A stretch of DNA of 64,000 bases, the filler included, from Stramenopiles sp. TOSAG23-6 (Eukaryota): the NCBI GenBank assembly GCA_900128565.1. It is 11 parts of 11 records of this genome, joined end to end, with 100 filler letters (N's around TTAATTAATTAA, not from the genome) between each part and the next. Parts side by side here need not be neighbours in the genome. Positions count along the whole stretch, not along the records: positions 48,153 to 54,913 come from LT636651.1; 10 more parts are not named here. The stretch is one strand, 5' to 3'. Shown here piece after piece: positions 1 to 61,716 of the stretch (position 1 is the stretch's first letter; the number at the start of each line of letters is the position of its first letter). The notes below the pieces were generated by a model. It did not search any database. It had not been told where the DNA came from and worked only from the letters and a program-made list of their open reading frames with translations. The position numbers and the translations under genes are program-made.

Positions 1-60
1 AAATTTTGTACCTAACAAATTTTTTTAGATTTTTTTTTGAAATATTTTTCCAAAATACAT
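1..60 (+). mobile_element. Introner-like intron, 3' part (mirror of 6063-6171)
   Basis: GTACCTAAC ... CAAAATACAT|GGC AGT TAT. Confidence 0.8.
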
Positions 61-650
61 GGCAGTTATGCACTCATGTGGGGTACCGGGTTCGAACTTG
101 TAGATATGCTATTAACATGTAAATTTGCTGAAGGAGACTCTCGTATTTTGCAACAAAAACTAATGAGAGATCGACTCCTTGCTTTGAAAAAAGGCGGAAT
201 GTATGTTTTATTTTTTTTTTTACAAAAAAATCGATTTTTTTTTTCATACGAAATTTACAAAATACATGATGAGTATCATTTCTGAAACCATCAATGGCAA
301 TGGTGAAGAAGCCCGTTTAGCTGCAAAGTTAGGTAAAATGTTCAGTTCTGCTGGTCGAGATAAGAATAAATTATCTGACCTTATCAATACAAATTGGAAA
401 GATGTGTACAAGTACGTTGTTTTTTTTTTCCAATTTTTTTTTTCCAATTTTTTTTTACTACGAAATTTCGTACCTAACAAAAAATTCTACAAAAAAATTT
501 AAATATTTTTCACAATATATACTTTCTGAGTTAGTGGCTTCTAGACACATACGAGATGGCGAAAGAGGTGAATTCATTGAACCTTTAATTGAACGTTTAG
601 AACCTGCATCAACTCTGTTTGATGAAAATTGGAAAGATAAACTTGATTAA
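61..650 (+). CDS. Acyl-CoA oxidase/dehydrogenase family protein, 3' part (exons 61-200, 268-411, 521-650); left-arm copy
   Basis: GSYALM...CKFAEGDSRILQQK motif; frame restored by removing GT..AT introns. Confidence 0.75.
201..267 (+). mobile_element. Introner-like GT-AT intron (internally collapsed copy)
   Basis: AT|GTATGT...AATACAT|G gives KKGGMMSII; the branch-point segment missing here is present in the mirror copy 5856-5924. Confidence 0.7.
412..520 (+). mobile_element. Introner-like GT-AT intron, 109 nt (mirror copy 5603-5711, minus strand)
   Basis: AA|GTACGT...TACGAAATTTCGTACCTAAC...CACAATATAT|A gives DVYKLSELVA. Confidence 0.85.
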
Positions 651-768
651 AAAAATAAAAAAGTCATGTTTGAAATTTTTTTTTCATTTTTAAAAAAATC
701 AAATATTTTACATTTTTTTTTTTAAATCTTTTTGGAGGTTTTTAACAACTAAACTAGGGTTAGGGTTT

Positions 769-1535
769 TTATACTGTAGTTTCTACAAAAAATTGTACTT
801 GAGTGTGTAAAGAACGAAAATTTCTTATTGGTATTATTTTAGGCATACTCACAGATTGTGTACTATTTGATACAACTTTCAAAGATGAGGAACTATGTTG
901 AACAATTTTACTTGAAGGTGAAATCTCAACAGCGTCTGGAGTTGTAAGTATCCATATATTATGAAAAAATATTTTTTTTTGTACAATTTGTTAGGTACAA
1001 AATTTCGTATGAAAAAAAAATTTAGATAAAAAAATTGAAAAAAAAACATACACTGTTCGGTAGAAACATCTTGAATAGTCTTTTCTGCGTAAACAAATAT
1101 CTGAAAAGTACATCCTGATCTTGGTTTCCCTAGTGTTGTGTCAATCATTAATAGTCTAGTTAAAGCAGCTGTGAAACCAGAAGACAGAGGCACACAGTTT
1201 GAGGATTGAATACTTGGAATACCATTTACACTGTTTTGTAAAAGTTCATGCTTCAATTCAAACACGAAACGCTCTACTATGATACCATCTGCCGATACTA
1301 AGGCTATTGCAATTTGTTGCACTTTATTCGTATCAATCCAAGGATGAATTCGATTCAATACATTTTCTATATAGTCGTTTAACTGAGGATGGCGAGACAT
1401 CCATACGGCAATGCCGTAACTTCTACGACGCTCAAATAATGCTTTTGGATAAATCTCACGTACAAAAAGTATCTGATGCACTGCAACCTTGAGAAAATCA
1501 ACGAGATCATTCGTCTGAGAGTTTGATGACATCAT
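769..1535 (-). CDS. REV7: HORMA-domain protein REV7/MAD2L2 (intron 954-1051)
   Basis: FLKVAVHQILFVREIYP..LFERRR.YG..V.MSRHPQL..YI and ERFVFE motifs; the spliced exon 2 supplies the W-I-L motif. Confidence 0.9.
954..1051 (-). mobile_element. Introner-like GT-AT intron, 98 nt
   Basis: CAG T|GTATGT...CATAATATAT|GG ATA CTT gives Q-W-I-L. Confidence 0.85.
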
Positions 1536-1918
1536 TCATTTGTTCAACGAAAGCAGTGTTGTTGACATATCAGTATAATATGTGCTTGGAGATTTTTTTC
1601 TTTTATATTTTACTACTAGTAAAAAAAATAATGCAGCTGGTCCGGTCAAATTGATAGATTGACAGTGTGACCTTGGCTTGGTGCACCCAAGAAAAATTAT
1701 ATAATTTTGATGTTACCGGGTATTATATTATAGCCATCATTCATGAATCATGTGATCTATCGCGATTTCAGATTATACACACACACACGTACCTATTCTT
1801 TTTCATCCTTTTTTCAGTAAAATATAGCCTCCGTCTAGGTGGATTTTGTAGAAATACTTTTTGTCTCATTAGATACAGCTTAGTTGTGTTTCTATTACTT
1901 TTGTTCTAAGATAGTGTA

Positions 1919-2940
1919 ATGCAATCTGGAAATATTCCTTTTAGCAACATTCCACAAAATGTGTCTTTCGATGATGCCATTCAGGACTATCAACAAAGAG
2001 GCCAAACGAGTCAAGCTTTTTTTCTGTCAAATGTTCAACTCGTCTTGAAACAACACGGTAAGTAACATAATGAAAACGAAACGTACTTCCATATTTTGTA
2101 TTTTGCCTATTTCGTTTTGTACAGTTTGACTAATATTTTTACTTGTTTTATATTTTCGTACGCTACTGGTCATTTTTTAAACGTCATTCCTTTACTCAAT
2201 GGTTTCCAAATAGACCTTCAGCGTCTCTACCATGTTGTTGATTACCATAGTGGTTACGAAAATGTTGATAGGCAACGTTTGTGGATAGTTGTTACTCGTG
2301 ATATGAACTATCCTCCTAATTTCGCAAGCTTCTTACGATATACGTACCAACGCTGTTTATTTTTATTTGAAAGAAGCCAAATGAGAGTAGACCCAGTTCG
2401 TTACCCGGGTCTACCAATGATGCAAAGTTCTCCTAACCCAAATATTGAGTACGATAGTGTATCAATTGGGAATGGTGTAGCAACAAATACAAACCTGTCT
2501 AATATGTGTCGCGTAATAGGAGAAGATGGCAGCACTAATTCCGCTCATCCAGATGACATCAAAGCACAAAATGATTCAGAGATTAAAGGCTTAAAAACTT
2601 TGTTACAAAACTCACAAAATCTACAACGTATACAAACAGAAACATTTCAAAATGTAGAGACTTTGAAAAATTATAATGAAAAGTTGAGCTCAACTTTGGA
2701 ATCATCGGAAAAAATACCAAATACAATTAAAGTCAGGCAGCAACCCAACCCTAACCCTAAAGTCGGGCAGCAACCTAACCCTAACCCTAAAGTCGGGCAG
2801 CCACCAGAAGTGCAACATACATCTAAAATACAACAATTACCTCTTGTAAAAAGTGCTATAAAAGATTCAATAGGAACTCTATCAACAAAAATCATTCCCT
2901 CTGGCGAATGTCTGTTGAAAATTAAAATACCGGACAAACT
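1919..2940 (+). CDS. ARID/BRIGHT DNA-binding domain protein, 5' part (intron from 2058 to ~2168; truncated at palindrome centre)
   Basis: FLSNVQLVLKQH-G-HFLNVIPLLNGFQIDLQRLYHVV...GYENV...W matches the ARID pattern. Confidence 0.75.
2730..2800 (+). repeat. 30-nt coding tandem repeat (VGQQPNPNPK) containing CCCTAA units
   Basis: About 2.5 direct copies visible. Confidence 0.8.
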
Positions 2941-3007
2941 GTAGGTTTTATTTTTTTTTAATTTTTTTATTTTTTTTTGTTTCTTACGAAATTCTATACT
3001 TAAAAAA

Positions 3008-3040
<33 letters not shown>

Positions 3041-3041
3041 C
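2941..3041 (+). mobile_element. Introner-like intron, 5' part, running into the palindrome centre
   Basis: CT|GTAGGTTTTATTTT...TACGAAATTCTATAC. Confidence 0.65.
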
Positions 3042-3042
3042 G

Positions 3043-3075
<33 letters not shown>

Positions 3076-3142
3076 TTTTTTAAGTATAGAATTTCGTAAG
3101 AAACAAAAAAAAATAAAAAAATTAAAAAAAAATAAAACCTAC

Positions 3143-4164
3143 AGTTTGTCCGGTATTTTAATTTTCAACAGACATTCGCCAGAGGGAATGATTTTTGTTG
3201 ATAGAGTTCCTATTGAATCTTTTATAGCACTTTTTACAAGAGGTAATTGTTGTATTTTAGATGTATGTTGCACTTCTGGTGGCTGCCCGACTTTAGGGTT
3301 AGGGTTAGGTTGCTGCCCGACTTTAGGGTTAGGGTTGGGTTGCTGCCTGACTTTAATTGTATTTGGTATTTTTTCCGATGATTCCAAAGTTGAGCTCAAC
3401 TTTTCATTATAATTTTTCAAAGTCTCTACATTTTGAAATGTTTCTGTTTGTATACGTTGTAGATTTTGTGAGTTTTGTAACAAAGTTTTTAAGCCTTTAA
3501 TCTCTGAATCATTTTGTGCTTTGATGTCATCTGGATGAGCGGAATTAGTGCTGCCATCTTCTCCTATTACGCGACACATATTAGACAGGTTTGTATTTGT
3601 TGCTACACCATTCCCAATTGATACACTATCGTACTCAATATTTGGGTTAGGAGAACTTTGCATCATTGGTAGACCCGGGTAACGAACTGGGTCTACTCTC
3701 ATTTGGCTTCTTTCAAATAAAAATAAACAGCGTTGGTACGTATATCGTAAGAAGCTTGCGAAATTAGGAGGATAGTTCATATCACGAGTAACAACTATCC
3801 ACAAACGTTGCCTATCAACATTTTCGTAACCACTATGGTAATCAACAACATGGTAGAGACGCTGAAGGTCTATTTGGAAACCATTGAGTAAAGGAATGAC
3901 GTTTAAAAAATGACCAGTAGCGTACGAAAATATAAAACAAGTAAAAATATTAGTCAAACTGTACAAAACGAAATAGGCAAAATACAAAATATGGAAGTAC
4001 GTTTCGTTTTCATTATGTTACTTACCGTGTTGTTTCAAGACGAGTTGAACATTTGACAGAAAAAAAGCTTGACTCGTTTGGCCTCTTTGTTGATAGTCCT
4101 GAATGGCATCATCGAAAGACACATTTTGTGGAATGTTGCTAAAAGGAATATTTCCAGATTGCAT
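3143..4164 (-). CDS. ARID domain protein, mirror copy
   Basis: Reverse complement of 1919-2940. Confidence 0.7.
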
Positions 4165-4547
4165 TACACTATCTTAGAACAAAAGTAATAGAAACACAAC
4201 TAAGCTGTATCTAATGAGACAAAAAGTATTTCTACAAAATCCACCTAGACGGAGGCTATATTTTACTGAAAAAAGGATGAAAAAGAATAGGTACGTGTGT
4301 GTGTGTATAATCTGAAATCGCGATAGATCACATGATTCATGAATGATGGCTATAATATAATACCCGGTAACATCAAAATTATATAATTTTTCTTGGGTGC
4401 ACCAAGCCAAGGTCACACTGTCAATCTATCAATTTGACCGGACCAGCTGCATTATTTTTTTTACTAGTAGTAAAATATAAAAGAAAAAAATCTCCAAGCA
4501 CATATTATACTGATATGTCAACAACACTGCTTTCGTTGAACAAATGA

Positions 4548-5354
4548 ATGATGTCATCAAACTCTCAGACGAATGATCTCGTTGATTTTCTCAAGGTTGC
4601 AGTGCATCAGATACTTTTTGTACGTGAGATTTATCCAAAAGCATTATTTGAGCGTCGTAGAAGTTACGGCATTGCCGTATGGATGTCTCGCCATCCTCAG
4701 TTAAACGACTATATAGAAAATGTATTGAATCGAATTCATCCTTGGATTGATACGAATAAAGTGCAACAAATTGCAATAGCCTTAGTATCGGCAGATGGTA
4801 TCATAGTAGAGCGTTTCGTGTTTGAATTGAAGCATGAACTTTTACAAAACAGTGTAAATGGTATTCCAAGTATTCAATCCTCAAACTGTGTGCCTCTGTC
4901 TTCTGGTTTCACAGCTGCTTTAACTAGACTATTAATGATTGACACAACACTAGGGAAACCAAGATCAGGATGTACTTTTCAGATATTTGTTTACGCAGAA
5001 AAGACTATTCAAGATGTTTCTACCGAACAGTGTATGTTTTTTTTTCAATTTTTTTATCTAAATTTTTTTTTCATACGAAATTTTGTACCTAACAAATTGT
5101 ACAAAAAAAAATATACGAAATTTTGTACCTAACAAATTGTACAAAAAAAAATATTTTTTCATAATATATGGATACTTACAACTCCAGACGCTGTTGAGAT
5201 TTCACCTTCAAGTAAAATTGTTCAACATAGTTCCTCATCTTTGAAAGTTGTATCAAATAGTACACAATCTGTGAGTATGCCTAAAATAATACCAATAAGA
5301 AATTTTCGTTCTTTACACACTCAAGTACAATTTTTTGTAGAAACTACAGTATAA
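4548..5354 (+). CDS. REV7: REV7/MAD2L2, mirror copy (intron 5032-5169 with a 40-nt internal duplication)
   Basis: Same protein as 769-1535. Confidence 0.88.
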
Positions 5355-5472
5355 AAACCCTAACCCTAGTTTAGTTGTTAAAAACCTCCAAAAAGATTTA
5401 AAAAAAAAAATGTAAAATATTTGATTTTTTTAAAAATGAAAAAAAAATTTCAAACATGACTTTTTTATTTTT

Positions 5473-6809
5473 TTAATCAAGTTTATCTTTCCAATTTTCA
5501 TCAAACAGAGTTGATGCAGGTTCTAAACGTTCAATTAAAGGTTCAATGAATTCACCTCTTTCGCCATCTCGTATGTGTCTAGAAGCCACTAACTCAGAAA
5601 GTATATATTGTGAAAAATATTTAAATTTTTTTGTAGAATTTTTTGTTAGGTACGAAATTTCGTAGTAAAAAAAAATTGGAAAAAAAAAATTGGAAAAAAA
5701 AAACAACGTACTTGTACACATCTTTCCAATTTGTATTGATAAGGTCAGATAATTTATTCTTATCTCGACCAGCAGAACTGAACATTTTACCTAACTTTGC
5801 AGCTAAACGGGCTTCTTCACCATTGCCATTGATGGTTTCAGAAATGATACTCATCATGTATTTTGTAAAAATATTTAAAAAAAAAAACTAAAATTTGTTA
5901 GGTACAAAATTTCGTATGAAAAAATCCGCCTTTTTTCAAAGCAAGGAGTCGATCTCTCATTAGTTTTTGTTGCAAAATACGAGAGTCTCCTTCAGCAAAT
6001 TTACATGTTAATAGCATATCTACAAGTTCGAACCCGGTACCCCACATGAGTGCATAACTGCCATGTATTTTGGAAAAATATTTCAAAAAAAAATCTAAAA
6101 AAATTTGTTAGGTACAAAATTTCCTATAAAAAAAAATTTCGATTTTTTTGTAAAAAAAAAATAAAACATCCAACTTCCTGTCTTAATTTATGAACTCTTT
6201 GTGTAGCAACATCAATACATCGAATTTTACACACAGCGATAGCTTCAACTAAATCATCATCTGGTATTTCTCCATTGGATAGGCATTTATTTAATCGTTT
6301 TTCCACACCTGCGGTAAACGCCAACATATCATCAATTTCTTTATACGATTCATCCAAAACTCCTCGAAGTTGTGGCATTGAAGCGAGTGAAGTTTCACCA
6401 GCCAAACCGTTACATACCTTTGATAAAGCATACTCTTCTGTCTTCATATGCAATACACGAGCACTTACCAATGCAGCTTCAGCAATTGCTTGGCGACCTG
6501 TCAATAATCGTTGTCCAATGACCTCGATTCTCATTGGTTCATCTCCAACCTGAACATATTTGTTATCTTTAATATCACAAAATTTATTTAATAGTGCATC
6601 TTTGGGTAATTTTACATTATCAAACCACACACGAGAATTATCGAGATCATTGGCAATCGTTTTCGGTCCCATGTCAGAGATTTTGATACCAGGTTCAAGA
6701 GACCCATTATCGCTACGAAGACGCATAAAAAATGCATGAGGCCCATGTGAAACACCATCTACTTTAAGTTTTGCAATTACAACACCTAATTCAGCTGTAT
6801 AGCCCTGAT
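5473..6809 (-). CDS. Acyl-CoA oxidase/dehydrogenase family protein, 5'-truncated, three family introns
   Basis: DMGPKTIANDLDNSRVWFDNVKLP, GQRLLTGR and RQEVG-SYALM motifs. Confidence 0.8.
6063..6171 (-). mobile_element. Introner-like intron with GG donor and AT acceptor, 109 nt
   Basis: GTT|GGATGT...CAAAATACAT|GGC gives RQEVGSYALM. Confidence 0.75.
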
Positions 6810-6909
6810 NNNNNNNNNNNNNNNNNNNNNNNNNNNNNNNNNNNNNNNNNNNNTTAATTAATTAANNNNNNNNNNNNNNNNNNNNNNNNNNNNNNNNNNN
6901 NNNNNNNNN
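6810..6909. other. Artificial contig spacer N-TTAATTAATTAA-N (also ~13716, 20588, 27457, 34323, 41189, 48053, 54914, 61769, 62888)
   Basis: Identical all-frame-stop 12-mer between N runs at each contig join. Confidence 0.98.
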
Positions 6910-13715: not shown

Positions 13716-13815
13716 NNNNNNNNNNNNNNNNNNNNNNNNNNNNNNNNNNNNNNNNNNNNTTAATTAATTAANNNNNNNNNNNNNNNNNNNNNNNNNNNNN
13801 NNNNNNNNNNNNNNN

Positions 13816-20587: not shown

Positions 20588-20687
20588 NNNNNNNNNNNNN
20601 NNNNNNNNNNNNNNNNNNNNNNNNNNNNNNNTTAATTAATTAANNNNNNNNNNNNNNNNNNNNNNNNNNNNNNNNNNNNNNNNNNNN

Positions 20688-35065: not shown

Positions 35066-35161
35066 GTACGTTTCATATGAATTTCTAATTTAAGTTTTTT
35101 TTTTCATACGAAATTTCGTACCTAACGATTTTAATGTTTGAAATATTTTTTCATAATCCAT
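35066..35161 (+). mobile_element. Introner-like GT-AT intron, 96 nt (donor phase does not match the long downstream ORF)
   Basis: AT|GTACGT...CATACGAAATTTCGTACCTAAC...CATAATCCAT|G. Confidence 0.75.
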
Positions 35162-40965: not shown

Positions 40966-41287
40966 TCTATTTTATAGAGTATCTACGGTATTTTGTGGTT
41001 TGAGAATTTAAAGGAATTGGTTTTTTTGCTACCTTCGTACAAAAGCCAATTATTTTCGCCAATTTATGTCTTCAAATTTGACCTAAACAAACTAACCCTA
41101 ACCCTAGTAATCATCGTCAAAGAGTCGATGATGCAAAGTCAGTCACTCAATGATAACTAATTTGCTTGCACTGTATCAGACTTTTTCNNNNNNNNNNNNN
41201 NNNNNNNNNNNNNNNNNNNNNNNNNNNNNNNTTAATTAATTAANNNNNNNNNNNNNNNNNNNNNNNNNNNNNNNNNNNNNNNNNNNN

Positions 41288-41350: not shown

Positions 41351-42731
41351 TGTGGTGGGATTGGCTATTATTTTCTTGGAAAAGAAGAGAAATTATTACG
41401 ATATAATTGCGAAACTCAGAGTACGGGAGATGTTGATGTTGATACATTACATGAAGTTTTATGGTCTATTGAAGATTCTTGGGAGGAGAATTTATTAACA
41501 TTGCCAAATGCGGACTTGTACGTTTGTATCATGAAGTTTAATTTTAGTTTTTTTTCATACGAAATTTTGTACCTAACGACTTAACAAAAAATTAAATCTT
41601 TTTTCACAATATATGCGTTCTTTAGAAGAGTTTTTATTAGGTGTTAAAAATAGTCCTTTGAATACTCTTGACACCAAAACTAAAAATAATAGTGATCAAA
41701 ATGACACTATTCCGCTAATATCACCACGGGTATTATCTTTAGCCGAGGCTGGGTATGGAAACACATCAGGCTCTGATTTAAACAAATTATCATTTTCAAT
41801 ATCGGCATTTGCTGAGCATTGTTGGAAAGAAGATGGTAATCATGATCATCGACCAGTCGGTTCGCTTTCATGTGCTGTGGATATTTTACGCAAAGGTATT
41901 CATATACATACTGAAACGCCTGTTAGTCGTATTGTTTGGCATAATCCTGATACTTTATATGTTGAATCAAGTAATGGAAAAAATGTTAATGCATCTGCTA
42001 TTGTTTTAACAGTACCTCCAGCATTTCTCCATGATAAAATAGTAGAATCAAAATCAATTGATACGTCTAACAATGAGAATAGAATACCTACAACAGAACG
42101 TATTTTGTTCGAACCTTGTTTACCTGATTGGAAGCAATCGGCTGCTCGAACAATATCTTTTGAAATTGGTGTGAAACTCATTGTAGTATTCGATACAATT
42201 TGTTGGCCTAAAAATTGTCATGGAATTATTTGTTCAGATTGTTTTTTCCCTGAAATTTGGATGCAAGAACAAGAAACATCTGAAAAAAATAGAGAGAATC
42301 CTTCTTTTTACTATGCTACTGCATTCTTAATGGGTCAGAAGGCAACGGCTGTGACCAATCTTGCTGGTGGTGTGAAGGAAGCGAGTTTTCTACTAATTGA
42401 CCAGATTCAACGTATATTCAAGACTCATCCAGTGGAACATTATTTAACTAGTATTTTGGCAGATTGGGGGAAAGTACCTTATGTAAGAGGTGCATATACA
42501 AGTCCATCTGTCACAGAAGCAAAAGCTGCTGTAGAGTGTAACCGTGATACTCGAAATTCGTATAATACTGGTGGTTCAATTCGCCAGTTGCTGTCAAAAC
42601 CAGTAGATGGAAAATTGTTCTTTGCCGGTGAAGCAACACACTCATCATCGTTTATGACGGCTCATACTGCAATGGAAACTGGTCATCGAGCAGCCTTAGA
42701 AGTAATTAATACACTGAATGGTATTAAATAG
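41351..42731 (+). CDS. Flavin-containing amine oxidase, 3' part (intron 41518-41614)
   Basis: VLTVP, F.P.LP.WK, DWGKVPYVRGAY, LFFAGEAT...AHTAMETG.RAA. Confidence 0.88.
41518..41614 (+). mobile_element. Introner-like GT-AT intron, 97 nt
   Basis: TT|GTACGT...CACAATATAT|G gives ADLRSLEEFL. Confidence 0.85.
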
Positions 42732-42784
42732 TTTCATTTTGTGAACATTTTGTTAGGTACAGAATGTAGTATGGAAAAAAATGG

Positions 42785-43917: not shown

Positions 43918-45402
43918 ATGGGGTCATACTTATCAACTCCAATAACGGAAAAACACACCGATACTGGTGTACATTTACATTCCGATATCAAGCTCACGTA
44001 CTGTGTATCAGAAATGCAGGTTTGTTATACCACCAATCTGCCACTAGTTTCATTTTGTACTATTCTTCGAGTCCCGCTTTATTTTTCGCATGTGCATGTT
44101 TTTATGTGTTGATATACTAACATCAATAATTTTATTCATCATACTTTACAGGGTTGGCGCAAAGACATGGAAGATGCACATATCACAGAACCTGATATTG
44201 GTACAGATTCCGCGTTCTTTGCGGTGTTTGATGGTCACGGGGGTAGTGAAGTTGCAACTTTTTGTGCGAAACATATGACCGACGAGTTAAAAAAATTACC
44301 AGAATATGTAAATGGAGACTACGAAAAAGCCCTAACCTCAATAAACCATCACTTAGATGATTTAATTCGTAATCCAAAGTTTCGTGAGGAGATAGACAGC
44401 TATACTAACGCAAACAAGTCCAAAACAAGCCCAACAGAGTCCTCTACAGATAGTATCGAAGATGCAGAGGGAGAATCAGCTGAAGATGGTGTTGGAGTAG
44501 GCGCTGGGCAAGAAGCGAACGATGACGATGCTGATGAGATGGAAGAAGAATTTGTGAGCAGGTCGAGATCAGCTGAAGACTTGGCAACATTAGAAGCAGA
44601 AGTTCGTCATATTTTTCATATTTTGTAATAATATATCACTATATATTCAATGCTAAACTCTAACATTCGCTATACTTTTTATATTTATGTAGTATATGTG
44701 GTCGCTGGAATGAATAAAGCAAAGACTGAAGGAATTTCAAAAGCTGAAGCAGTGGAAGTTATGATGAAACTTATGGCGTTGCAACGAGGAAGACAAGATG
44801 GTACAATTGAGAACGGCGAAGGAGCAGAAGGTAAAGGCGAACAATCCTGTGATCTTGTCAACGCAGGATGTACATCTGTTGTTACTTTGATTAGAGGTCG
44901 CGATTTGTATGTCGCAAACGCAGGGGATTCCCGTGGTGTTATGTGTCGTGCAGGAACTGCTGTAGCTCTATCATATGATCACAAACCTCAAGACGAAGTC
45001 GAGTTAAATCGAATAAAAAAAGCTGGTGGTTTCGTCACTGATCAAGGTCGAGTAAATGGTAATCTCAATTTATCTCGTTGTATTGGAGATTTAAAGTACA
45101 AAATCGATAAAAGCATTCCAGCATCAGAACAAATTATTACAGCCGAGCCTGATATTTTGAAATTTAAAATTACAGATGAAGACGAATTCATTATCCTTGG
45201 TTGTGATGGTATCTGGGATTGTAAGACGAATCAAGAAGCCGTGGATTTCGTGCGTCCTCGTCTTCAGTCTGGCGTTCCACTAGAAGAAGTGACAGAAGAG
45301 TTACTTGACTCCATAATCTGCAAAGATCCCTCATCTACTGGTGGTATTGGAGCTGATAACATGACCTTTATGATTATCAAAATAGATAAAGTAGTAAAAT
45401 GA
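43918..45402 (+). CDS. Protein phosphatase 2C, PPM1G-like (introns 44020-44151 and ~44602-44697)
   Basis: MGSYLSTP, MQ|GWRKDMEDAH, VFDGHGG, ANAGDSR, DHKP, LGCDGIWD, GADNMT. Confidence 0.95.
44020..44151 (+). other. Canonical GT-AG intron with TACTAAC branch point
   Basis: CAG|GTTTGT...TACTAAC...TTACAG|GGT TGG restores MQGWR. Confidence 0.92.
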
Positions 45403-45590: not shown

Positions 45591-47740
45591 TTAACTATTT
45601 GACTGTTTGATTGTAGCTGCATGTATAGCATCATGTAAAGCATTTCGTGCTTTTACAATACTTTCTGATGTCTTGGTGGCAGTTTCACTTTTCTTGAGTT
45701 GTTCAGNNNNNNNNNNNNNNNNNNNNNNNNNNNNNNNNNNNNNNNNNNNNNNNNNNNNNNNNNNNNNNNNNNNNNNNNNNNNNNNNNNNNNNNNNNNNNN
45801 NNNNNNNNNNNNNNNNNNNNNNNNNNNNNNNNNNNNNNNNNNNNNNNNNNNNNNNNNNNNNNNNNNNNNNNNNNNNNNNNNNAAAATAATTTTTTTAGTA
45901 AAAAATTTTGTACGAAAAAAAAAAAAAAAAAATCAATTTTGAAAACGTACATTATTTTGTAAATGAAATTCACCTAACATGAGACCTTTTCTAACAAAAT
46001 CAATCTTACAAGCCCTCTGGGTATCATCAATAAAATGCTTTGCATCATTAGCTAATATATCAGGAAAAATGAGAATTAGTGTTTTAAATTTCCTTCGTGT
46101 TCCTGATGTTGGTTCCAATGATAAAAAACGATCCAGGAACCGTCTAATGAACTTCCGCATAGAAACTTTATCTTTATTTTGTAATTGTCCAGTGTGTAAT
46201 ACACTCATATATATCGTATTCCTACGCAACGCACCTGGCATGAATGGACACACAGGACCAGATCTACCTGATCCTGGATGTGGTTTTGCAAGAAACTCAC
46301 GAAGGTAGCATAAGATATCTTGATAGGGATTCATCACAGAGTCGAAATTATGATGTCCATCTGTAGCAGATATTTCATGATTCATTCCACTTTTGTCATT
46401 ATTTTCAACACTTTCAGGCGGCTCGAAAATTTCAATGACATTTATTTGATCTATGGTATTCGAAGTAATAGTATTAGTATGATTGTCATCATGATTAAGC
46501 GACTGTAACTGTTGATCAATATCTTTAGGTGTGAGCAAAGGGCAAGTTGATACATTTGGAAATGGATTTTCTAGATTTTTTTTGTTTTTGTTATAAGGAC
46601 AGGAATAATTACTTTCATTCTTTTTATGCAAAGATAATATTGTTTTTGGTATAGTACTCAATAACTTTTGAATGATTGATGATGACTCTTCTGAATCAAA
46701 TAAGAAAAATAAAATTGCAACAATCATTGCAATCACAAATAAATGTCGTGCTTCTTGATTGGTTGAAGTAAAAATACCATGTATGGATGAAAAATATTTC
46801 AAAAATTTGAAATTCGTTATGTATGAATTTTTTTTTCGGAAAAAAGAAATTTAAATTCATAATGAAAATATACATATTCAGTATTCAATGTAGAATATGC
46901 AATTATTGATACTACAATAGATACACACACACCAATAAACCATATTGGTTGCTTTAATAAGCCTCCCTTTCTGATAGGTGTGTTTTTGATTACAGCAGAG
47001 GCAAGCTTTTCAGTAAATATTTCACTCATTCTCATTCGAGAAACCCAAGCCAAAGTACTCGGAAAAATATATGGATTGCCATTTGCACAAACACCCGTGG
47101 CAGCACGTAATATTTCGGCAAGAGGGGGGTGGTGTCCAAAGAATGCACTCCTAAACGCATAATCACAACTGTTATCTTGATCAAATACAAACACCCCACC
47201 AACTTGAAAAATGTCGCCAGGATATATATCAACAGTACCTCCAGGTGCAAAATTATCATTGAAACCAGCCAAAACAGCAGCTTCACCAAGGGCTTTTGAT
47301 TGTTCTGTGAATAAATGACGACCCCTTCGAAGTCGCAATGCCCTATAAGTTAGAGATACACGAGAAATATTGCCTCCATCCTCTGGACAATTTGGTTCCA
47401 GAGTTGGGTCACCACATGTGTTAGCATCCAAATATAATTCACCTTTATAACCACTCTCCTGCAAAAACAAATCAGCAGAATCTTGATTACCAAGCGAAAC
47501 AAATATCAGGTCGACATTGTGTTCGACAAGTTTTTTTGCAATTGATATAAGCTGAGCACTTTGTTGTTTGCAGAATCTACAACCCAAATGGCGTAAAAAA
47601 GCGACGACTACTCTACGACCTTTCCATAATTGATACAATGAGATACGACTGCCCTTTACAAACGTTGGGTGAACGTTGGTGGCGACATGAAGAGAAAGCT
47701 CTCCAGTTGATGGTATTGAAACACTTTGGCGACGTGCCAT
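45591..47740 (-). CDS. Fusion protein: AhpC/TSA-2 (PRXL2-like) domain, TM segments and DUF6875-like domain (intron 46779-46873; second intron from 45950 into a gap)
   Basis: FLRHLGCRFC, FQVGGVFVF; FLAKPHP..GRSGPVCPF.P.AL, F...GLMLGEFH. Confidence 0.7.
45883..45950 (-). mobile_element. Introner-like intron, 5' part
   Basis: AAT|GTACGTTTTC...TTCGTACAAAATTTT. Confidence 0.7.
46779..46873 (-). mobile_element. Introner-like GT-AT intron, 95 nt
   Basis: TAT|GTATAT...ATACATAAC...CATCCATACAT|GGT joins two ORFs in frame (TEY-GIF). Confidence 0.8.
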
Positions 47741-52061: not shown

Positions 52062-54828
52062 TTATTGATCATTGACTACATTTTGAATTTCTTGAATCGA
52101 CATCGAACTAGATGATAAAGTTGGGCAATACTCATCCCATTTATCCTCAACAGTGTCTACAATAATAATATCGCTATCTTTTGGACTTTTTACACTAAAT
52201 GAATTTGATGCATCTAAAAAACTTGACATTCTCCTCTTCTTAGCATCGAGATCCTCTCCTTTTGTATAGTCTCCAAGAGCTCTCGAAGATGGGAAACGCC
52301 CGAGTCGTTTTGATGCAGGTGAAGATAAAATTGACCTCGACGCAGGAAGTCGACCAAATGGTTTTGGAAATTGGATAGAGCTTGATGAAGTTGCAAGACT
52401 ATTGGGGGTAGTACATCTAATTCTCAATTCTTCTCCGTTTGATAGTTTTAATCGACTCCTCTTAATTACCTTTAAGAGTTGCAAACGTAAAAATGAATTT
52501 TCTTTGCGTAAAGAGTTCAGAGTTTTGTTTTGCTTGTGATGTAAAATCTTTAATAAATTTAAATTTCTATTATCCATTCGTAATTGCTCAAGAGTTTTTT
52601 CATTACAATCACTAAAACTCTTGGGTAATTCTTTNCCTNTTAGANTTTTTTTTTCTTTTCCATTATTCTCATTATTTTTAGTTGGTTTTGATGGTGATGT
52701 AACTTGAACAAGTGTAAGCTCCGAGTTTTCTTTGTGCTGTTCATCCTTCGTCACATTCACTCCATTCAATGCATTTTTATTCTTGTTAACATTACTCTTT
52801 GTTTTAAGGCTTACATGAGCTTCACATTGAGGTGGCATTCGAAATGTTATTGTCACTGGACGCTCACAATTTGCCAATAATTCTAAAACTTCATCAAAAG
52901 TTTTATGGTTAAATGAATGCATACTTTCTTCATCGAAATGCCGACACCCAACAACGATACACCCACGACATAATTTAGTCCAATTTTCTTTGTCAGTCGC
53001 AGGAAGTTTTGCTTCGATTTTTTTTGATACATATTTTACTTGAACCGAATATTTCAACTCCAATCCAATTTTACTCTTGCTTAGGTTGACATCTGTTAAC
53101 ATTAAACCCAATTTACCTGGACCAAACGTGACTTCAAACTCTTCACGGGCATCCCAATTTCCTAATTTATTGCATAAAGCATTCGCAATCTGAGGGTCAT
53201 CGCGAACTAATTTGATAAATTCAGTGCAACCTACAGGTCTAGTAGCCAAAACAGCCCGAGCTGTAATTACAACTTTACTTGACGTTGAAGCTAATGATGG
53301 CGCAATTAATTGATCTTCCGTTACTAATGTTGCATGCGAGCATAACCATTTTAATAAAGCTTGAGACTCAGATGGATCTAATTCTCCATTTCCGTCTACA
53401 TCAAAAAGAGAAAAACAAAGTCTTACTTTTTTGTGAAAAATATGTTTTACGTTTGAAATTCGTTAGGTATGGAATTTTGTATGAAAAAAATACATTTAAA
53501 ATTCCTAATAAAAACATACATTTGTTGTCTAAACTACCTTCTCCATTTATAAGACTCATACCTGTAATAAATGACCCTAAACTAAGCCCAGCTTGTAGAG
53601 GAATATTGAGTACATTTTCATTTCCTCCTTTATCATGTTCTTTCACTTTTGCTTTTGGAGAAGAACACGCATCTTCAGCCGCCCCTAACATAGTGAATGC
53701 AGTATACAAACCATCTGCATAACTTTCATGCGCTGGAGCAAACATAGCAACAATTCTTTTGAATGATTCACGCGATATTCGTCTATAGTCAGGAATGCGA
53801 TGTCGGGGACTACATTCATTATCAAAAGCATCTACTAACCGATGAAATGCAACTAAACCCAGAGAATTATTTGCAGTATCCCTAAGCACAGATAAATCGC
53901 TTTCAGTGACAATAGCAAGACACTGTAAGCGGAGATGGCGAATATATTTTGCACCACCAATGACACTCAGATTATGTAATATTTGTGAAATAAAGATATC
54001 GGCATCAAATTTTTTCAGCTTGAATGTCCTTAAAGACAGAAAGAAAGTCAACTACATTACTCGTTTCGCATAGGCGATGAGCTCCTATTTGAAGAAGAGT
54101 TAACATTGCTGCAATAAGAATGTTACTACCAGCAATAAATAAAGCATCAATAATTCGAACGACAGTGCATTTCGGCAAATGCATAATAAAAAGACCCATC
54201 ATAGGAGCTACGGCAAACCCTTCGAGTGGTAGTTCTAATTCTCGAAGATGTGCATTCAAAACAGGTAATTCTTGAGAGAGGAGTTCCTCAAGTACTAACA
54301 AGTCTGTTCGAATGCCTTGCATTGACGAAACATAATATTCCGGGCATATTGTTTCAACAATAGCGTTTATAAGCCAGAAAGAAATTTCTTCATCAAGAGA
54401 TGTCATATTCAGTATAAATGCCGCGATGAAATTCATTGATTGACAGTATCCTACTACACGATTTCGCATTGCTACAGCAATTAAAACATTTTGTAATGAA
54501 TCAAGACCACCTTCTTCTGTATTTATTAGTGTACTTGAGATACTCCCGCAAGTGCGTGGCAAATCTCTTTCGATTTGGCATATATTATGAAAAAATATCA
54601 CATTCGAATTGTTTTGTTAGATACAAAATTATCTACGAAAAAAAAAATCAAAATCATTTTTGAAAACATACATAATTCAGTTTTAGTCAAGGCAGTAAAA
54701 CCTAGAGACACAAGTCGTTTGTAGTAATTTTTACCATACTTTTTTGCAGCGTTTTTCATTGCTTGAGTTCCACTTCGTAAACAAATCCATACTTGAGGTC
54801 GAATACTTGGCGGGATCCCTTGCCAAAC
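52062..54828 (-). CDS. Rab-GAP TBC domain, EF-hand and PDZ-like protein, 5'-truncated (introns 54580-54671 and 53426-53519; apparent 1-nt frameshift near 54010)
   Basis: GIPPSIRPQVW, QIERDLPRT, GYCQSMNFIA, LFDVDGNG EF-hand, F.PGKLGL..ERPVTITF. Confidence 0.88.
53426..53519 (-). mobile_element. Introner-family intron with canonical GT-AG ends, 94 nt
   Basis: T|GTATGT...ATACCTAAC...CACAAAAAAG|TA AGA gives KLRLCFSLFDVDGNG. Confidence 0.88.
54580..54671 (-). mobile_element. Introner-like GT-AT intron, 92 nt
   Basis: T|GTATGT...CATAATATAT|GC gives ELCQIERDLPRT. Confidence 0.88.
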
Positions 54829-54913
54829 ATGTACGATAAAGAAATAGTCAAATTCAAAAGTCGTTCGTTACAAAATTTTCAAAAAAAAAAAAAAAAAGAA
54901 AAAAAAAAAAAAA
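54829..54913 (-). mobile_element. Diverged introner-like intron, 3' part
   Basis: ...ATCGTACAT|GTT TGG CAA GGG ATC CCG. Confidence 0.65.
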
Positions 54914-55556: not shown

Positions 55557-56085
55557 TATTAAACATTAAATATTTGCCCCCCCCCCCCTGAGGCAGGTTT
55601 GTGTCATCACTTAAAAAAATTGTCGGAGGTCATGTGCAACATATAAAACGATATAAAACACTGAAAAATGTAAAAAGAATCATACAAATTCATAATAATT
55701 TATTTTTAAACCTAACCCTAATTAAATTTTTCATTTTTCATGCAGCCAACTTAAAAGTGTGGGTCCTCGCGCAGCCCTAGATTTTATTCAAAGGAGTTTT
55801 TTTCAAAATTCTTTGACACGAGTTGTTTCGAAGTCTTTCGAAGTTACCTTGTTTGTTCGTTGTGTGAATTAATTCAACATACACGAGTCGTCTCGAGATG
55901 CGCTCCTTGAGTTGAATATATATGAAACTATACATGAAATTATTGTATTATAGTGTGATTACTGTGAAATATATAAATGCTTGTCAAGATATCTATTGAA
56001 ATAGTTGTATAAATTACTTATAGGAATGATTTAATTGTTTTTTTGTGTCAGAAACAATCTTTTTGAGACTAAAATATTCACAAGA

Positions 56086-59000
56086 ATGCCTAATCTTCGA
56101 GTGAGAACACCGCCATCAAGTAGAAGACCAAAGTGTGAGGGAGAACATGAGACAAAATACAATTCAGAAATGAAACTTGGGTATATAGATTCAGATGCAG
56201 CATTAGCCTTAAAGTTACAACGTGAGGAAATACGGACAAGTGGTGGCAATACAAAACGCTTATTTTCACGTAGACTTTCTTCTAAATCGCAAGACAACAA
56301 ACACAGTGGAGTTCGAAAAATTCTAATTAAATGCGGTAAACGTAAATCTTCACATGTCGAAGAAGGCAACGTATCTTATAAAAAGGCAAAGATTGTTAAA
56401 CTAAGGGTAAAACTTCCGAAATCTTCAACTGAAAAAACAAGCAAAAGTAACAAACAACGTGAAAAAGAAAAAAAAGCCAAACAGACTTTGAGGACTAAAA
56501 AAAAATCAAGTGACTTGAAGATAAAATCTAAATGGCGATGGGTTGGTCCTGCATATCATACATCCCTTTTAAGCAATTTATCGTCCGATGTTCTGCCCTC
56601 TATCGTTTCTTCCACGAAGAAATATTCGGAAAAAAGTAGCAATAGTATATTCAATGAAAAAGTAAATCACCCTACTGAAAAAGTAAATCACCCTACATTT
56701 GAAAAGACAGCGGGAGGGAAGTTTATAACTTTGACAGGAAAAAAGGCACCCAATCGTAAAAAGACGGGTGTTACATATTATAATACACTCCAACTTCCAG
56801 GTGGTGAGTATATCCGCCCTCTTGATCACGTTGAAGTTTCTTTCGAATCTGGTGAGAGTAATAAGAAGAAACATTACATTGCTCAAGTGGAAGCCATGTT
56901 TGTTTTATTTTTTTTTCGATTTCGAATTTTTTTTCGTACGAAATTTTGTACCTAACGAATTTTTTATTGAAATATTTTTTCATAATCCATGTGGGAAGAT
57001 CACAGTGGTTCAAAGATGTTCACGAAAGGACGTCGTTCAATTATTGGCCGTACAAAAGCATCGCGAAATACAAAATCATCGAGAAGTGGGAGTCGTGATG
57101 ACCGTTGTTTCGTCAGATTATTATGGTTGTTTTGGCCTGAAGAAACTGATGTTGTATGTTTTCAAAATTTAATTTTGAATTTCTTTTTATTTCATAGAAA
57201 ATTTCATACCTAACGAATTTCGAATTTGACATGTTTTTTTCACAATACTTGGTCGAAGTAAACGACATTTAGAACTTGAGGTATTGAGTTCGGATTGTCG
57301 TGACAATGTGTCTATTAGTTGTATAGTCCGTAAATGTAATATAAGCTATGAATACGACGATAATAGATTCAACAATCATACAGCAGTAGTACCAAAATAC
57401 CTTCAGCAATTAGAGTCGTCTATATTTGATGATATTAACACTAGAACTCGAAAACGGCGATCAAATAAAAATCGAAGTAGACGAAACCAATTAGTTGTTC
57501 GTTCGCATTATCATTTCAATACGGGAAAAGTTTCCGATTTACCTCCACAACCTCGTGGTGACTGTTGCATTGAAATAGAAACAGAAATTAATAATCTTCC
57601 GTTTGAAGATCCTAAAATACCTAATTCAAAAGATACTTTTAAAAAACCTACTCTTAGATGTGATTTATGTTGCGAAGATGTGACATATTTCCCACATGTA
57701 ATTTGCCAGGATCCTACATGTAGGTTTTCATCTTTCAAAAACAAATTGATAAATACTTTTATTTAATGAATTTTTCACCTAACAATATCAGTTTTGAAAT
57801 ACTTTCCAAAACACATGTTGTCAGGAAAATGTAAAACAATTAAAAAGAAGACTTTATGACTTAAATAAATTAGGAAAACGTGTTTTTGAAGATCAGTCTT
57901 GGTTAGAAATGAATAGCCCTGATTTAGCAAGCTCAGATGGTAGCGATTCTGAAAACAGTGACTATGAAAAAATTACCACCACGAGAAGTGGCAAGATACA
58001 TTTTACTGTAGTTCAATCTAGCAGTCGAAATCGATCATTAAGTTATTCTAGTATGAAAAGTGACAGTAGTTTTAGTTCGATTGCTCTCACCGAAGAAAAC
58101 AAAGACAATGACATTTGGTGGAGAAAAAAAACAGAAGATATGAATGAGTCCACATTTACATCTCAGCGTGTTGGTCGTGTCATTTGTGCTCAATGTATTC
58201 GGAAAGGTTGTGAAGATACGTGGCACAAAAGATCGCATAAGTATACCGTACCTAGACCTTCCATTTCTGTTGATTCTAAAAATTTACCCCAAATATTACA
58301 AAAAATATGTAAAGACCGAAATATACGTCTAAAATACAGATTACTCTCCATCAAACACCCTAGTGATTTCAGTAAACAAATGAAGACAGGTACTAGCGTT
58401 TGGGACCCAAAAATGAAACCCGAAATTTTATTTGGTGCGGAGTTGTCGTATGATACTCTTAGTCATACACAGGTTAAAATACTTTCTCAGAATTCTAGTA
58501 CAATTAGAGCAACCCGTAACTTTAGTAAGAAAAGACCAATTGATGCATCATTGTCGTCTCCTCCTAAAATTGTTCATCGGTATCGTTCAGTTCCAGCTCT
58601 GAAGTACAGTAATAGTTTACAAGATGCTCGTCAATCTCCATCTCTCTCGGCGTTATCAGCTATATTTGGAGCGTCTCATAATCTGCAACATGTAGTGCTT
58701 GCATTTGGATGGTGTGCATGGGAGGAGAAAAAACTACTTGACGGTATATTAAAACATAACTTTGCATGGGATTTAGTCGCATCGGTTGTGGGAACAAAAT
58801 CTGCATCAGCTTGTGAAAAACATTATTATGATGATATGCTTCCTCTTGCAGGATCTCATCCAGGCATGTGCGGTCCACGCCTTCCTAAAACAATTCGTGG
58901 GAAAAACCTTGTTGGCACTGTTGTTCGTGTTCCTCCTTCGAAACTTATCTCTGGATGGGAACAAGCTAGGGTTTTGAGTTATAACCCAAAAAGAAAGAAA

Positions 59001-59358: not shown

Positions 59359-61716
59359 TTATTTTTTGGTCTCTTGGTCTAATGCATCCAACAATTTATC
59401 TACATTATCAGTAGATGCAATGACTTCTTCATTGATCCCATCTGTATCTATTAAAGCATTTTTTTTTGCAATTTGCTTTTCTACCAACATTGAATAAATC
59501 CCCCCACGTGCTATTAATTCTTCATGAGATCCATATTCTACAATTTTACCTTTATCAACTACAGCAATTACATCTGCATTGATAACTGTAGATAGTCGAT
59601 GCGCGACAAGAACTACTGTTGATCCATTTGAATTATTTACTCCTTTGGCGATTAGTCTATCTATTGCATTCTGAACAAGACTTTCACTTTCAGCATCTAA
59701 TGCGGATGTTGCTTCATCTAATAGTAGAACTTTTGGTTTACGCAAAAACACTCGCGCTAATGCAATACGTTGTCTTTGTCCTCCACTAATTCGCAAGCCT
59801 CGCTCTCCGACCCTTGTGTTGTATCCATCTCTGAAATCTACGATGAAATCATGAGCACATGCATTCTTTGCAGCATTGACAATGTCTTCTTGAGTATATG
59901 AACCAGGGACTGCGCCATATACGATATTCTCGGCTATTGTTTTCGCAAATAATGACGTATCCTGTGCTACGGCGCCAATCAAAGATCTTAATTCACTCAC
60001 ACAAATATCTCGTAAATCCCGCCCATCAAATAAGATAGCTCCACCTCGAGGATCATAAAACCTCTGTATCATATTGACAATTGTGGATTTACCACCACCT
60101 GATCTACCGACAAAAGCTACAACTTTACCTGCTGGGATTTTGAAAGATATATCTTGAAGTACCTTTTGATCAGGTCGCATTTGGTAGTGAAAATTCACAT
60201 TCTTGAACTCAATTTCACCCTTTACTATCCAATTTATTGGTGCACCCTCTGAGGGATTTATATCAGGTAAAGAATCCATTAATGAAAATACTCTTTCAGC
60301 AGCTGCAGCAGAACGAGTGAAACCAGTTATAACACCTTGTAGTGCTTGATAGGCTGAATTCATATAGTTCCAATAAAGTTGAAATGCAATTAGATTTTTT
60401 ACTCGTACAATACCAAAGTCCTGGTCAGGATTCTCTTGATGTCTTATACAAAGTAATCCTCCAACGCTAAGAATAAGCATTCCAGTGCCTAAGTCTAGGT
60501 AGTTTGTAATTGCTGATGTCAGGGCGTACCCCCAGGCGTCGCGAATTCCTTGTTTAAGGGATTCTTCTGTGCTATTCATATATTCTTTTAATTCTTTTTT
60601 TTCATTTGAGAAACTTTTAACTATCCGTATATTACCCAAAGCTTGGGTGGCACATGAATTTGCTTCTGCAAGAGCAGAAAGCACAAGTCTATTTATCCGT
60701 TTTGACCAGTTTCCGTACAAGTCCCAAAGATAGAGTATGAAATGTAAAAAAATATATTTTTAGAAAAAAAAATGTTAGGTGCAAAATTTACTTGAAAAAA
60801 AAAAGAAAAAAAAAGTTGAAAACGTACATTGGTCCTACTGACGTAAATGCCAGCATACTTAATTGGTAACTCTCATAAAAACACATAACAATTCCACCAA
60901 TGAGCATAATGATATTGAATAGAAGTGTTGATAATGTACTTTGTATCGGACTCATCATCATTCCCACATCATTCGTAAGTCTAGACGTTAATCTTCCTGA
61001 AGTTGTGCCATCAAAATATGCAATATCCTGGATCAACAAACTCTTATATAGCTTGTTTCGTGCATGGAAGGCTATTTTGCGGCCTACCATAGTAAAAGCT
61101 AGTCCTTTAATGCCATTGAAAATACCAAGGAGAACCATAACAATTATATATGTCTTTACATGTTTGTTGAAGTCGTCTTTTGATGATTTTATAATATCTT
61201 GTACAATTAATCCTTGAGAATTAGGCAGAACGAGCGTTGCAATACTTGTACCAATCAAGAATAAGACAGCTAGCAACATCCAGCGCCATTCTGGGAGAGC
61301 TAGTTTAAACGCACGCTTCAGATATTCTTTATTTGTCATTGTGTTTTCATTTCGAGTACCACTGTCACTGCGTAACATATTTTCACCGACAACTGCTGCA
61401 TCTTTTCTACTTGCACATTTAACACAGATGTCAAAGTCACATAATTTACATCGCCATGCCTTTTGGATTCTAGTAGAACAAAGATCACACCAGTGACAAA
61501 TCGCATTTGAATCAAAAAAAACAGGATGAGGGTGGACATTGGGAAGTAATAGACCACGTTCTCTAGTTTCTTCTTCTACAAAAGCTCTTATTATCCATAC
61601 GGCTATATTTACCCAAAGTGCACTGATGCACATTGTCACAGCCTGCACAACTTTTGAACCTTTAATTGAGAAACGGAATTCAAGACATTTGATCCCAATA
61701 TATACCTGACAACCAC
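59359..61716 (-). CDS. ABCB half-transporter with an N-terminal Cys/His zinc finger (intron 60737-60827), 5'-truncated
   Basis: QDIAYFD...SGRLTSRL..D, GRSGGGKST, ISGGQRQRIALAR, LLLDEATSALD, VAHRLST. Confidence 0.93.
60737..60827 (-). mobile_element. Introner-like GT-AT intron, 91 nt
   Basis: AT|GTACGT...GCACCTAAC...TACATTTCAT|A gives VGPILYLWDLYG. Confidence 0.87.

Follow-up and report, generated by a model that had tools for sequence, protein, structure and literature searches.

A 94-nucleotide element on the minus strand of a 64,000-nucleotide stretch of DNA from Stramenopiles sp. TOSAG23-6 (GenBank assembly GCA_900128565.1; the whole stretch is termed the window) is, with a probability of about 0.78, a spliceosomal intron of a gene that encodes a TBC/RabGAP domain and an EF-hand. 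According to this reading, the element is a member of an introner-like family of repeats in which a 3' splice site other than AG is usual, and this focal copy has been mutated to AG. The family exists in the window, cuts at the G of GTAYGT and after a conserved 3' block join the flanking reading frames, and the 5' cut of the focal intron lies directly before GT. The focal intron, its parts and its two exons are as follows.

53426..53519, minus strand: focal intron, 94 nucleotides, GT..AG, member of the repeat family (nhmmer, E-value 8.7e-17)
53514..53519, minus strand: 5' splice site GTATGT, with the exon/intron boundary between 53520 and 53519 (RNA contig X11 record 2)
53467..53483, minus strand: decayed central palindrome, CATACAAAATTCCATAC in the focal copy versus CRTACGAAATTTYGTAC in the family form
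53462..53469, minus strand: branch-box-like TACCTAAC, with a putative branch A at 53463, 37 nucleotides from the 3' end
53426..53443, minus strand: conserved 3' block ATATTTTTCACAAAAAAG, whose last two bases (53427-53426) are the AG acceptor
53520..54579, minus strand: upstream exon of the TBC/RabGAP gene (Pfam RabGAP-TBC, E-value 3.1e-37)
52065..53425, minus strand: downstream exon, with the EF-hand loop DVDGNGELDPSE at 53402..53367

The minus strand from 53519 to 53426 runs GTATGTTTTTATTAGG...CCATACCTAACGAATTTCAAACGTAAAACATATTTTTCACAAAAAAG, in the order GTATGT...TACCTAAC...CACAAAAAAG, and is flanked by ...GACAACAAAT before and TAAGACTTTGTTTTTCTCTTTTTGATGTAGACGGAAATGGAGAA after. The upstream open reading frame (ORF) ends with ...GEGSLDNK plus one base, and the downstream ORF starts with two bases followed by RLCFSLFDVDGNGELDPSE. 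Excision from GT to AG joins ...SLDNK, a junction residue L and RLCFSLFDVDGNGELDPSE, and the product reads D N K L R L C F S L F D V D G N G E. A phmmer search aligns residues 3-29 of the downstream exon with EF-hands of calbindin (E-value 3.9e-5) and calmodulin (E-value 0.004). This match begins three residues past the junction, and DVDGNGELDPSE has the form of the 12-residue calcium-binding loop that lies between the two helices of an EF-hand. The focal AG is in frame and is the first AG 3' of the branch box. When 16 copies are aligned with MAFFT, TTTTTCACAAAAAAG of the focal copy falls without a gap on TTTTTCACAATACAT, the 3' end of the consensus. Therefore, the AG of the focal copy occupies the columns of the consensus AT. 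A preliminary description of this DNA had given these coordinates, placed the AG at the consensus position and proposed that GT-AG excision yields an intact EF-hand; these points are borne out by the alignment and the match to calbindin, the strand being minus.

To locate the cut in RNA and in independent DNA, run contigs were compared with the N-free stretch 52646-54913. Record 2 of X11, a poly(A) metatranscriptome, is 171 nucleotides long with a depth of 8.5, and is identical to 53520-53683 from its letter 8 onward. The seven letters that precede this part differ from the intron, and the match stops exactly at 53520, at the boundary between exon and GT. A register shifted by -2 predicts a mismatch at 53520, and a register shifted by +4 predicts a match that reaches 53516. 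This result therefore indicates that the 5' cut is made exactly before GT and excludes both shifted registers. In record 10 (53442-54645) of X3, an independent metagenome run of DNA, the 5' 78 nucleotides of the intron are contiguous with the exon. Thus, the element is present in DNA and is missing from that RNA contig. The 3' partner of this 5' site is assigned from the reading frame, the first-AG rule and the EF-hand match. The RNA contigs cover neither the focal 3' junction nor the junctions of the intron at 54671..54580, and absence of cover is not counted as evidence. The preliminary description preferred a GT..AT register to AT..AC and took the EF-hand as the deciding argument. The register stands, supported by GT at 17 of 18 5' ends, the stop of the RNA match at 53520 and the first AG, but the argument does not, because the junction reads KLRLCF in the unshifted register, KVRLCF when both ends are shifted by -2 and KCILCF when both are shifted by +4, all in frame. 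Spliceosomal removal, which it also proposed, is likewise supported, mostly by evidence other than the intact EF-hand.

The family was searched for with an nhmmer profile built from eight copies at a cut-off of E<1e-3. This search gives 25 matches over the window (best E-value 2.2e-20). The first contig is an inverted duplicate, and when its second arm is left out, the matches represent 21 distinct loci. Four further loci (45950, 54880, 60827 and 57720) are recognised by eye or by regular expression. The density of the family is about 25 loci in 64 kb, or approximately one copy per 2.5 kb. The copies are about 90-110 nucleotides long (about 95), and their host genes are unrelated: acyl-CoA oxidase, REV7/MAD2B, metallophosphatase-like, amine oxidase, TBC, BAH-like and ABC transporter genes. 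The consensus begins with GTAYGTTTTCA and continues with a T-run and CRTACGAAATTTYGTAC, which is palindromic when intact (the 16-nucleotide palindrome GTACGAAATTTCGTAC). These elements are followed by the branch box TACCTAAC (CTAACRA), a variable spacer and the conserved 3' block AAATATTTTTYCAYAAT-AYAT. The branch box is present in every aligned copy except the one at 46873, which has CATAAC; variants are TATCTAAC at 54671 and GCACCTAAC at 60827. Most variable positions of the family alternate between CG and TG or CA (GTACGT/GTATGT, CGTACG/CATACG/CATACA, TTCGTA/TTTGTA and CTAACGA/CTAACAA, for example at 24802, 35066 and 53519), a pattern expected under CpG decay. A metagenome scan with a 26-nucleotide core gives one locus, on an independent contig (L001), with the same ends as the family. 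A match in a prokaryote genome (L002) was rejected as a chance match within Bacteroidales coding sequence, and scans of viral contigs for the family give no matches. One copy in the window is not obviously intronic, a degenerate core fragment at 42742-42782 on the minus strand, which has no 5' splice site and lies directly downstream of an ORF.

Of the 18 loci that retain a 5' end, 17 start with GT and one, at 6171, starts with GGATGT; AT directly precedes the 5' end at 11 of the 18. At the aligned 3' position, 19 of 22 loci have AT, one has TT (57250), one has CT (41350, a copy whose 5' part is missing at a contig break) and one, the focal locus, has AG. The acceptor has A at -2 in 20 of 22 loci, and T is usual at -1. 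The contrast between the AG of the focal copy and the usual AT, which the preliminary description had drawn, is thus upheld, but the exact 10-mer CACAATACAT that it cited for the other copies is found at only one of the 22 loci in the window (27555) and in L001; the general 3' pattern is YAYAAT-NN-AT. The pair GT..AT is available at 13 of the 16 loci in the window that retain both ends. These 16 loci and L001 were used for a frame test. Cuts at the consensus positions unite long flanking ORFs at 16 of the 17 loci (P for at least 16 of 17 at p=1/3, about 3e-7). The upstream frame of the copy at 57154 was assigned by hand and confirmed by removal of three introns, and the copy at 57720 was judged from ORF coordinates and by this removal. 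Removal of the three consecutive introns of the BAH-like gene (GT..AT, GT..TT and GT..AT) gives an ORF of 1001 codons with no stops. The members of the family that are referred to below, beside the focal intron, are as follows.

54580..54671, minus strand: second family intron of the TBC gene, GTATGT..ATATAT (GT..AT)
54828..54913, minus strand: third, degenerate family intron of the TBC gene, 3' part at a contig end, ending CGTACAT/G (E-value 0.0016)
56898..56990, plus strand: family intron of the BAH-like gene, GTTTGT..ATCCAT
57154..57250, plus strand: family intron of the BAH-like gene, GTATGT..ATACTT (GT..TT)
57720..57816, plus strand: diverged family-like intron of the BAH-like gene, GTAGGT..ACACAT (GT..AT)
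60737..60827, minus strand: family intron of the ABC-transporter gene, GTACGT..TTTCAT (GT..AT), checked to the codon
27557..27624, plus strand: nearest to the focal copy among those in the window; it lies at a contig start, has only its 3' part and ends CCACAATACAT

The focal copy appears to be an ordinary member of this family. With an identity of 0.79 to the family consensus, it falls within the family range of 0.69-0.86, and its nearest relative (locus 27555) is 84% identical to it over the 3' half and ends with ATACAT. Three of the last five bases of the focal copy differ from the consensus (TACAT versus AAAAG), and two of these three positions are variable in the family. The simplest reading, and a plausible one on this comparison of sequences, is that the focal copy became canonical by mutation; no mark indicates that it is either older or younger than the others. 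It has the features of a U2-type intron, namely a GTATGT donor, a branch motif and an in-frame first AG, the use of the branch site being predicted from the sequence. The box TACCTAAC resembles TACTAAC.

The following mechanism would account for these results. The introner-like elements would carry their own signals, namely GTAYGTTTTCA, the T-run with the palindrome, the branch box and the 3' block. They would be removed by the major (U2-type) spliceosome, as suggested by GTAYGT, the TACTAAC-like box and the T-rich tract. In most copies, the acceptor would be a non-AG dinucleotide, with A kept at -2 and T at -1, that is placed by the 3' block, and not by the final dinucleotide itself, 33-46 nucleotides past the branch box, and TT may also be tolerated at this position, in one copy. 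In the focal copy, a change from TACAT to AAAAG at the end would have created a canonical, in-frame AG at the homologous position, so that this AG would mark the 3' cut site of the family. The distance from the branch box to the 3' end varies between 33 and 46 nucleotides across copies, and therefore a fixed distance does not set the 3' site. This site is probably set by the conserved 3' block.

Several observations weigh against this interpretation. The focal junction is seen in RNA from its 5' side only, and adapters occur at the ends of X11 contigs; no RNA contig crosses any AT acceptor. The terminal G of the focal AG is given by this assembly alone, and the pieces of X3 miss 53426-53441. 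RNAalifold finds no conserved pairs among 15 copies, and terminal inverted repeats are not found in the aligned copies. The copy at 35066 is one base off frame at the consensus positions, and the copy at 6171 has GG for GT. No unambiguous GT-AG intron outside the family is seen in the window, and the shared sequence could therefore partly represent species-wide splicing signals. The two exceptional copies could be assembly errors, because the assembly and X3 differ by indels at 53497, 54012 and 54657. The copy at 35066-35161 on the plus strand is the sole one that misses the frame of its downstream ORF (337 codons); this could be explained by a donor at +4, by an indel in the assembly or by a short alternative tail at the C-terminus. 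The copy at 6171, on the minus strand in an acyl-CoA oxidase gene, is in frame at the consensus positions, and an in-frame GT is also present three bases upstream of its GGATGT.

Among the alternatives, the one that survives best, though it is unlikely, is that the family is not mobile and that its shared sequence represents the long constrained splicing signals of this species together with T-rich filler, as in some intron-poor picoeukaryotes. All introns recognised in the window (about 25 loci) bear the motifs, the diverged ones at 57720, 54880 and 60827 included, and the intron of the PP2C gene at 44602..44688 has only CTCTAAC and a 3' end of TTTAT/G; both points speak for this alternative. 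However, the copies form discrete subfamilies with linked variants in the spacer, which is not a signal. The identity of the 3' half, including this variable spacer, reaches 97% (24802 versus 61768), 92% and 88% between copies from different genes, while the median of 210 pairs is 69%. Spacers that are shared almost exactly favour descent by copying over splicing constraint alone. In addition, no splicing role is known for the 16-nucleotide palindrome that precedes the branch box, and 7 of 20 contig ends, where the assembly breaks, fall inside a family copy. Donor and acceptor boundaries share an in-register repeat, AT/G: positions -2, -1 and +1 match in 13 of 17 rows each, and other positions match in 2-10 of 17. 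Pairing with the 5' end of U1 does not account for this repeat, which suggests either a target-site duplication of 3 bp or a preference for certain targets and points to spread by insertion. Like introners, the family consists of many similar copies that lie as introns in unrelated genes and form subfamilies with linked variants. The PP2C intron, which lacks the family core, can be read within 44602-44692 on the plus strand as GTTCGT..TTTAT (GT..AT) or, shifted by four at both ends, as GT..AG, the two products being one residue apart.

Removal of the family by the minor (U12-type) spliceosome is less likely still. It would explain the long invariant motifs and the tolerated non-AG end, and indeed the 5' motif is conserved to about +11 and the branch box is nearly invariant. 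According to the accessible part of one study (bioRxiv 10.1101/2020.10.12.336362), GT-AT is a recurrent non-canonical U12-type boundary: of the 1,014 non-canonical introns that are assigned to the U12 type in Physarum, 17% have it. Such introns have the same terminal pair as the present family and, like it, extended conserved motifs at the 5' end and the branch. However, three features of the family do not fit this type: the 5' motif is GTAYGTTTT and not [AG]TATC[CT]TT, the branch box is TACCTAAC and not TCCTTAAC, and it lies 33-46 nucleotides from the 3' end, compared with about 10-15 nucleotides in U12-type introns.

It is very improbable that the AT copies are not spliced at AT, but at cryptic AGs, or are retained or lie in dead genes, and that only AG copies are true introns. 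In-frame AGs are present within 60 nucleotides downstream at several loci, and RNA libraries contain sequence of the family core (in X9, the depth reaches 56.7 in the bin 54622-54697); these facts and the failure to obtain RNA across an AT acceptor would fit this possibility. Nevertheless, the first AG past the branch box is in frame in only 4 of 14 AT or TT copies and out of frame in 10, which is the level of chance. Retention would introduce stops in 16 of 16 host ORFs, which are long and intact. For the intron at 54671..54580, the exon on its 3' side matches the TBC profile from its first residue, at profile position 49. The sole in-frame AG beyond this intron (+15) would remove QIERD from a QIERDLPRT motif, that is, profile positions 49-53. 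For the intron at 60827..60737, use of AG would delete 16 residues of the ABC transporter, which align to ABCB10 from residue 6. The number of residues that remain unaligned where exons 1 and 2 meet, with the junction codon added, was also compared with the number of intervening residues in solved chains. The counts are equal in all seven chains of ABCB half-transporters that are common to both result lists: 9 for 3zdq_A, 7y48_B, 4ayw_A and 7v5c_A, 11 for 5och_A and 7ehl_A, and 30 for the second half of 7zka_A. This agreement indicates that GT...AT excision is codon-exact at this locus. The same kind of comparison gives no result at three other loci. REV7 exon 2 has no match in the PDB; for the acyl-CoA oxidase at 6171, exon B has no match in the PDB and the match of exon A ends short of the junction; and of the amine-oxidase exons, the short one matches the lectin SeviL instead. 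This short exon, at 41351-41515 on the plus strand upstream of the amine-oxidase-like exon, resembles a beta-trefoil lectin (SeviL, PDB 6lf1, E-value 2.7e-4) and not the N-terminus of an oxidase.

A cut two bases upstream at both ends, which would make the copies AT..AC introns (ATGTAYGT...AYAC), can be dismissed almost entirely: AT-AC is a known intron class, and both registers yield identical mRNA at the 11 of 18 5' ends where AT precedes GT, but of the 16 loci with both ends, only 4 offer an AT..AC pair. The other 12 would combine AA, GT, TG, TT or AT at the 5' end with AT, AC, CC, TT, TC or AA at the 3' end, and the pair of the focal copy would be AT..AA. In addition, X11 record 2 matches 53520-53521 without a difference, and ATGTAYGT differs from the AT-AC 5' consensus ATATCCTT given in the accessible text of bioRxiv 10.1101/2020.10.12.336362.

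A broader proposal is made tentatively, at somewhat less than even odds. The spliceosome of this organism may routinely take AU in place of AG, nearly every intron in the 64 kb may derive from one mobile GT...AT introner family of about 95 nucleotides, and the AT may come from a target-site duplication of 3 bp (ATG). At the same position AG would work as well, and TT apparently too; the 3' block, and not the final dinucleotide, would then set the site.

The family resembles the introner elements of Micromonas, Aureococcus and many other eukaryotes in that many near-identical short copies each form an intron in an unrelated gene. They also share splice signals of their own, a short direct repeat at the boundaries and abundance in marine protists. 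It differs from them in that the 3' end is AT and not AG at 19 of 22 loci, and in that neither terminal inverted repeats nor an identifiable transposon class is found. In yeast-type constrained U2 introns, the order of signals is GTATGT ... TACTAAC ... YAG. The focal copy is similar to these introns in GTATGT, in a box that resembles TACTAAC and in having its acceptor at the first AG downstream, but its branch box TACCTAAC has an extra C, and the rest of the family has T and not G at the last base. Intron ends in Fritillaria are mostly AG-AC or AG-AT, the 5' end being non-canonical as well. As in Fritillaria, non-canonical ends would be used by the spliceosome throughout a lineage, but the 5' end is canonical here.

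The introners of Amoebophrya, as described in the accessible part of PMC7789003, are also repeated intron families of a marine protist with non-GT-AG boundaries, and have direct repeats of 3-5 nucleotides that overlap the exon/intron boundaries. Both of their ends are highly variable, and a hairpin is formed from flanking inverted repeats of 8-20 nucleotides. In contrast, the present family has GT at 17 of 18 5' ends and a nearly fixed AT at the 3' end, and inverted repeats that pair the ends are not found. The GC content of Amoebophrya introns is about 44-46% according to the same text, and that of the whole window is about 34%. Introner surveys began from annotated introns and expected the 3' ends AG and AC, as stated in the accessible part of PMC12130899, and a GT-AT family could therefore have escaped them. 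A literature search, supplements apart, gives no description of a GT-AT introner family. In the accessible text of PMC5778133, which deals with uncultured marine stramenopiles and their single-cell genomes, introns are mentioned only in the methods.

The TBC exon is split into two ORFs in the window by a frameshift of one nucleotide at about 54012. The window has four letters at 54010-54013, while DNA run X3 and RNA contig X12 both have three, which restores a single frame; the frameshift is probably a homopolymer error of this assembly. In the protein database, the upstream exon (74 amino acids) gives no candidates, and the downstream exon (453 amino acids) gives none among 8000 candidates at E<=0.001. 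Because these results are empty, transcript-derived or intron-less relatives are not available for comparison. Pfam gives no useful match for the single BAH-like exons or for the upstream TBC exon.

DNA nearly identical to the window occurs in seawater metagenomes, and small shares occur in seawater poly(A) metatranscriptomes, which indicates that the source is an uncultured marine eukaryote. Comparison of NDUFV1 with the PDB and with the ESM Atlas points to no particular lineage. The window is gene-dense and is filled by long ORFs with eukaryotic domains, including NDUFV1, an enolase-like protein, PP2C, TBC/RabGAP, acyl-CoA oxidase, REV7 and an ABCB transporter. A transfer RNA scan gives no genes, and an Rfam scan at gathering thresholds gives no matches, hence no small nuclear RNA gene in the 64 kb. 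The window consists of parts of about 6.9 kb in descending order of size, linked by N44-TTAATTAATTAA-N44 (6810-6909, 13716-13815, 20588-20687 and onward at steps of about 6.9 kb), and adjoining blocks do not imply neighbourhood in the genome. The first part, 1-6809, is an inverted self-duplicate in which acyl-CoA oxidase, REV7 and an ARID-like ORF each occur on both strands. Its arms differ within the same introns by internal deletions or duplications (201-267 versus 5954-5854; tandem duplication at 5032-5171), and it looks like an amplification or an assembly chimera. Short telomere-like runs of TTAGGG/CCCTAA lie inside contigs at 2750-2800, 3260-3340, 41091-41110 and 55711-55725, and at 160-240 of L001; some of them sit within a longer repeated unit (..GCTGCCCGACTTTAGGGTTAGGG..).

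The AG at the 3' splice site is among the most conserved signals of eukaryotic gene expression. If the reading is true and confirmed by RNA, this genome would contain an abundant and probably mobile family of introns that is removed at ...AT. It would then provide a natural system for the choice of the second-step site without a terminal G, and surveys of introners that are based on GT-AG could overlook whole families. The copy that ends with AG serves as an internal control for the position of the cut, and as a natural change from AT to AG that allows splicing efficiency to be compared between this copy and AT-ending siblings in the same gene.

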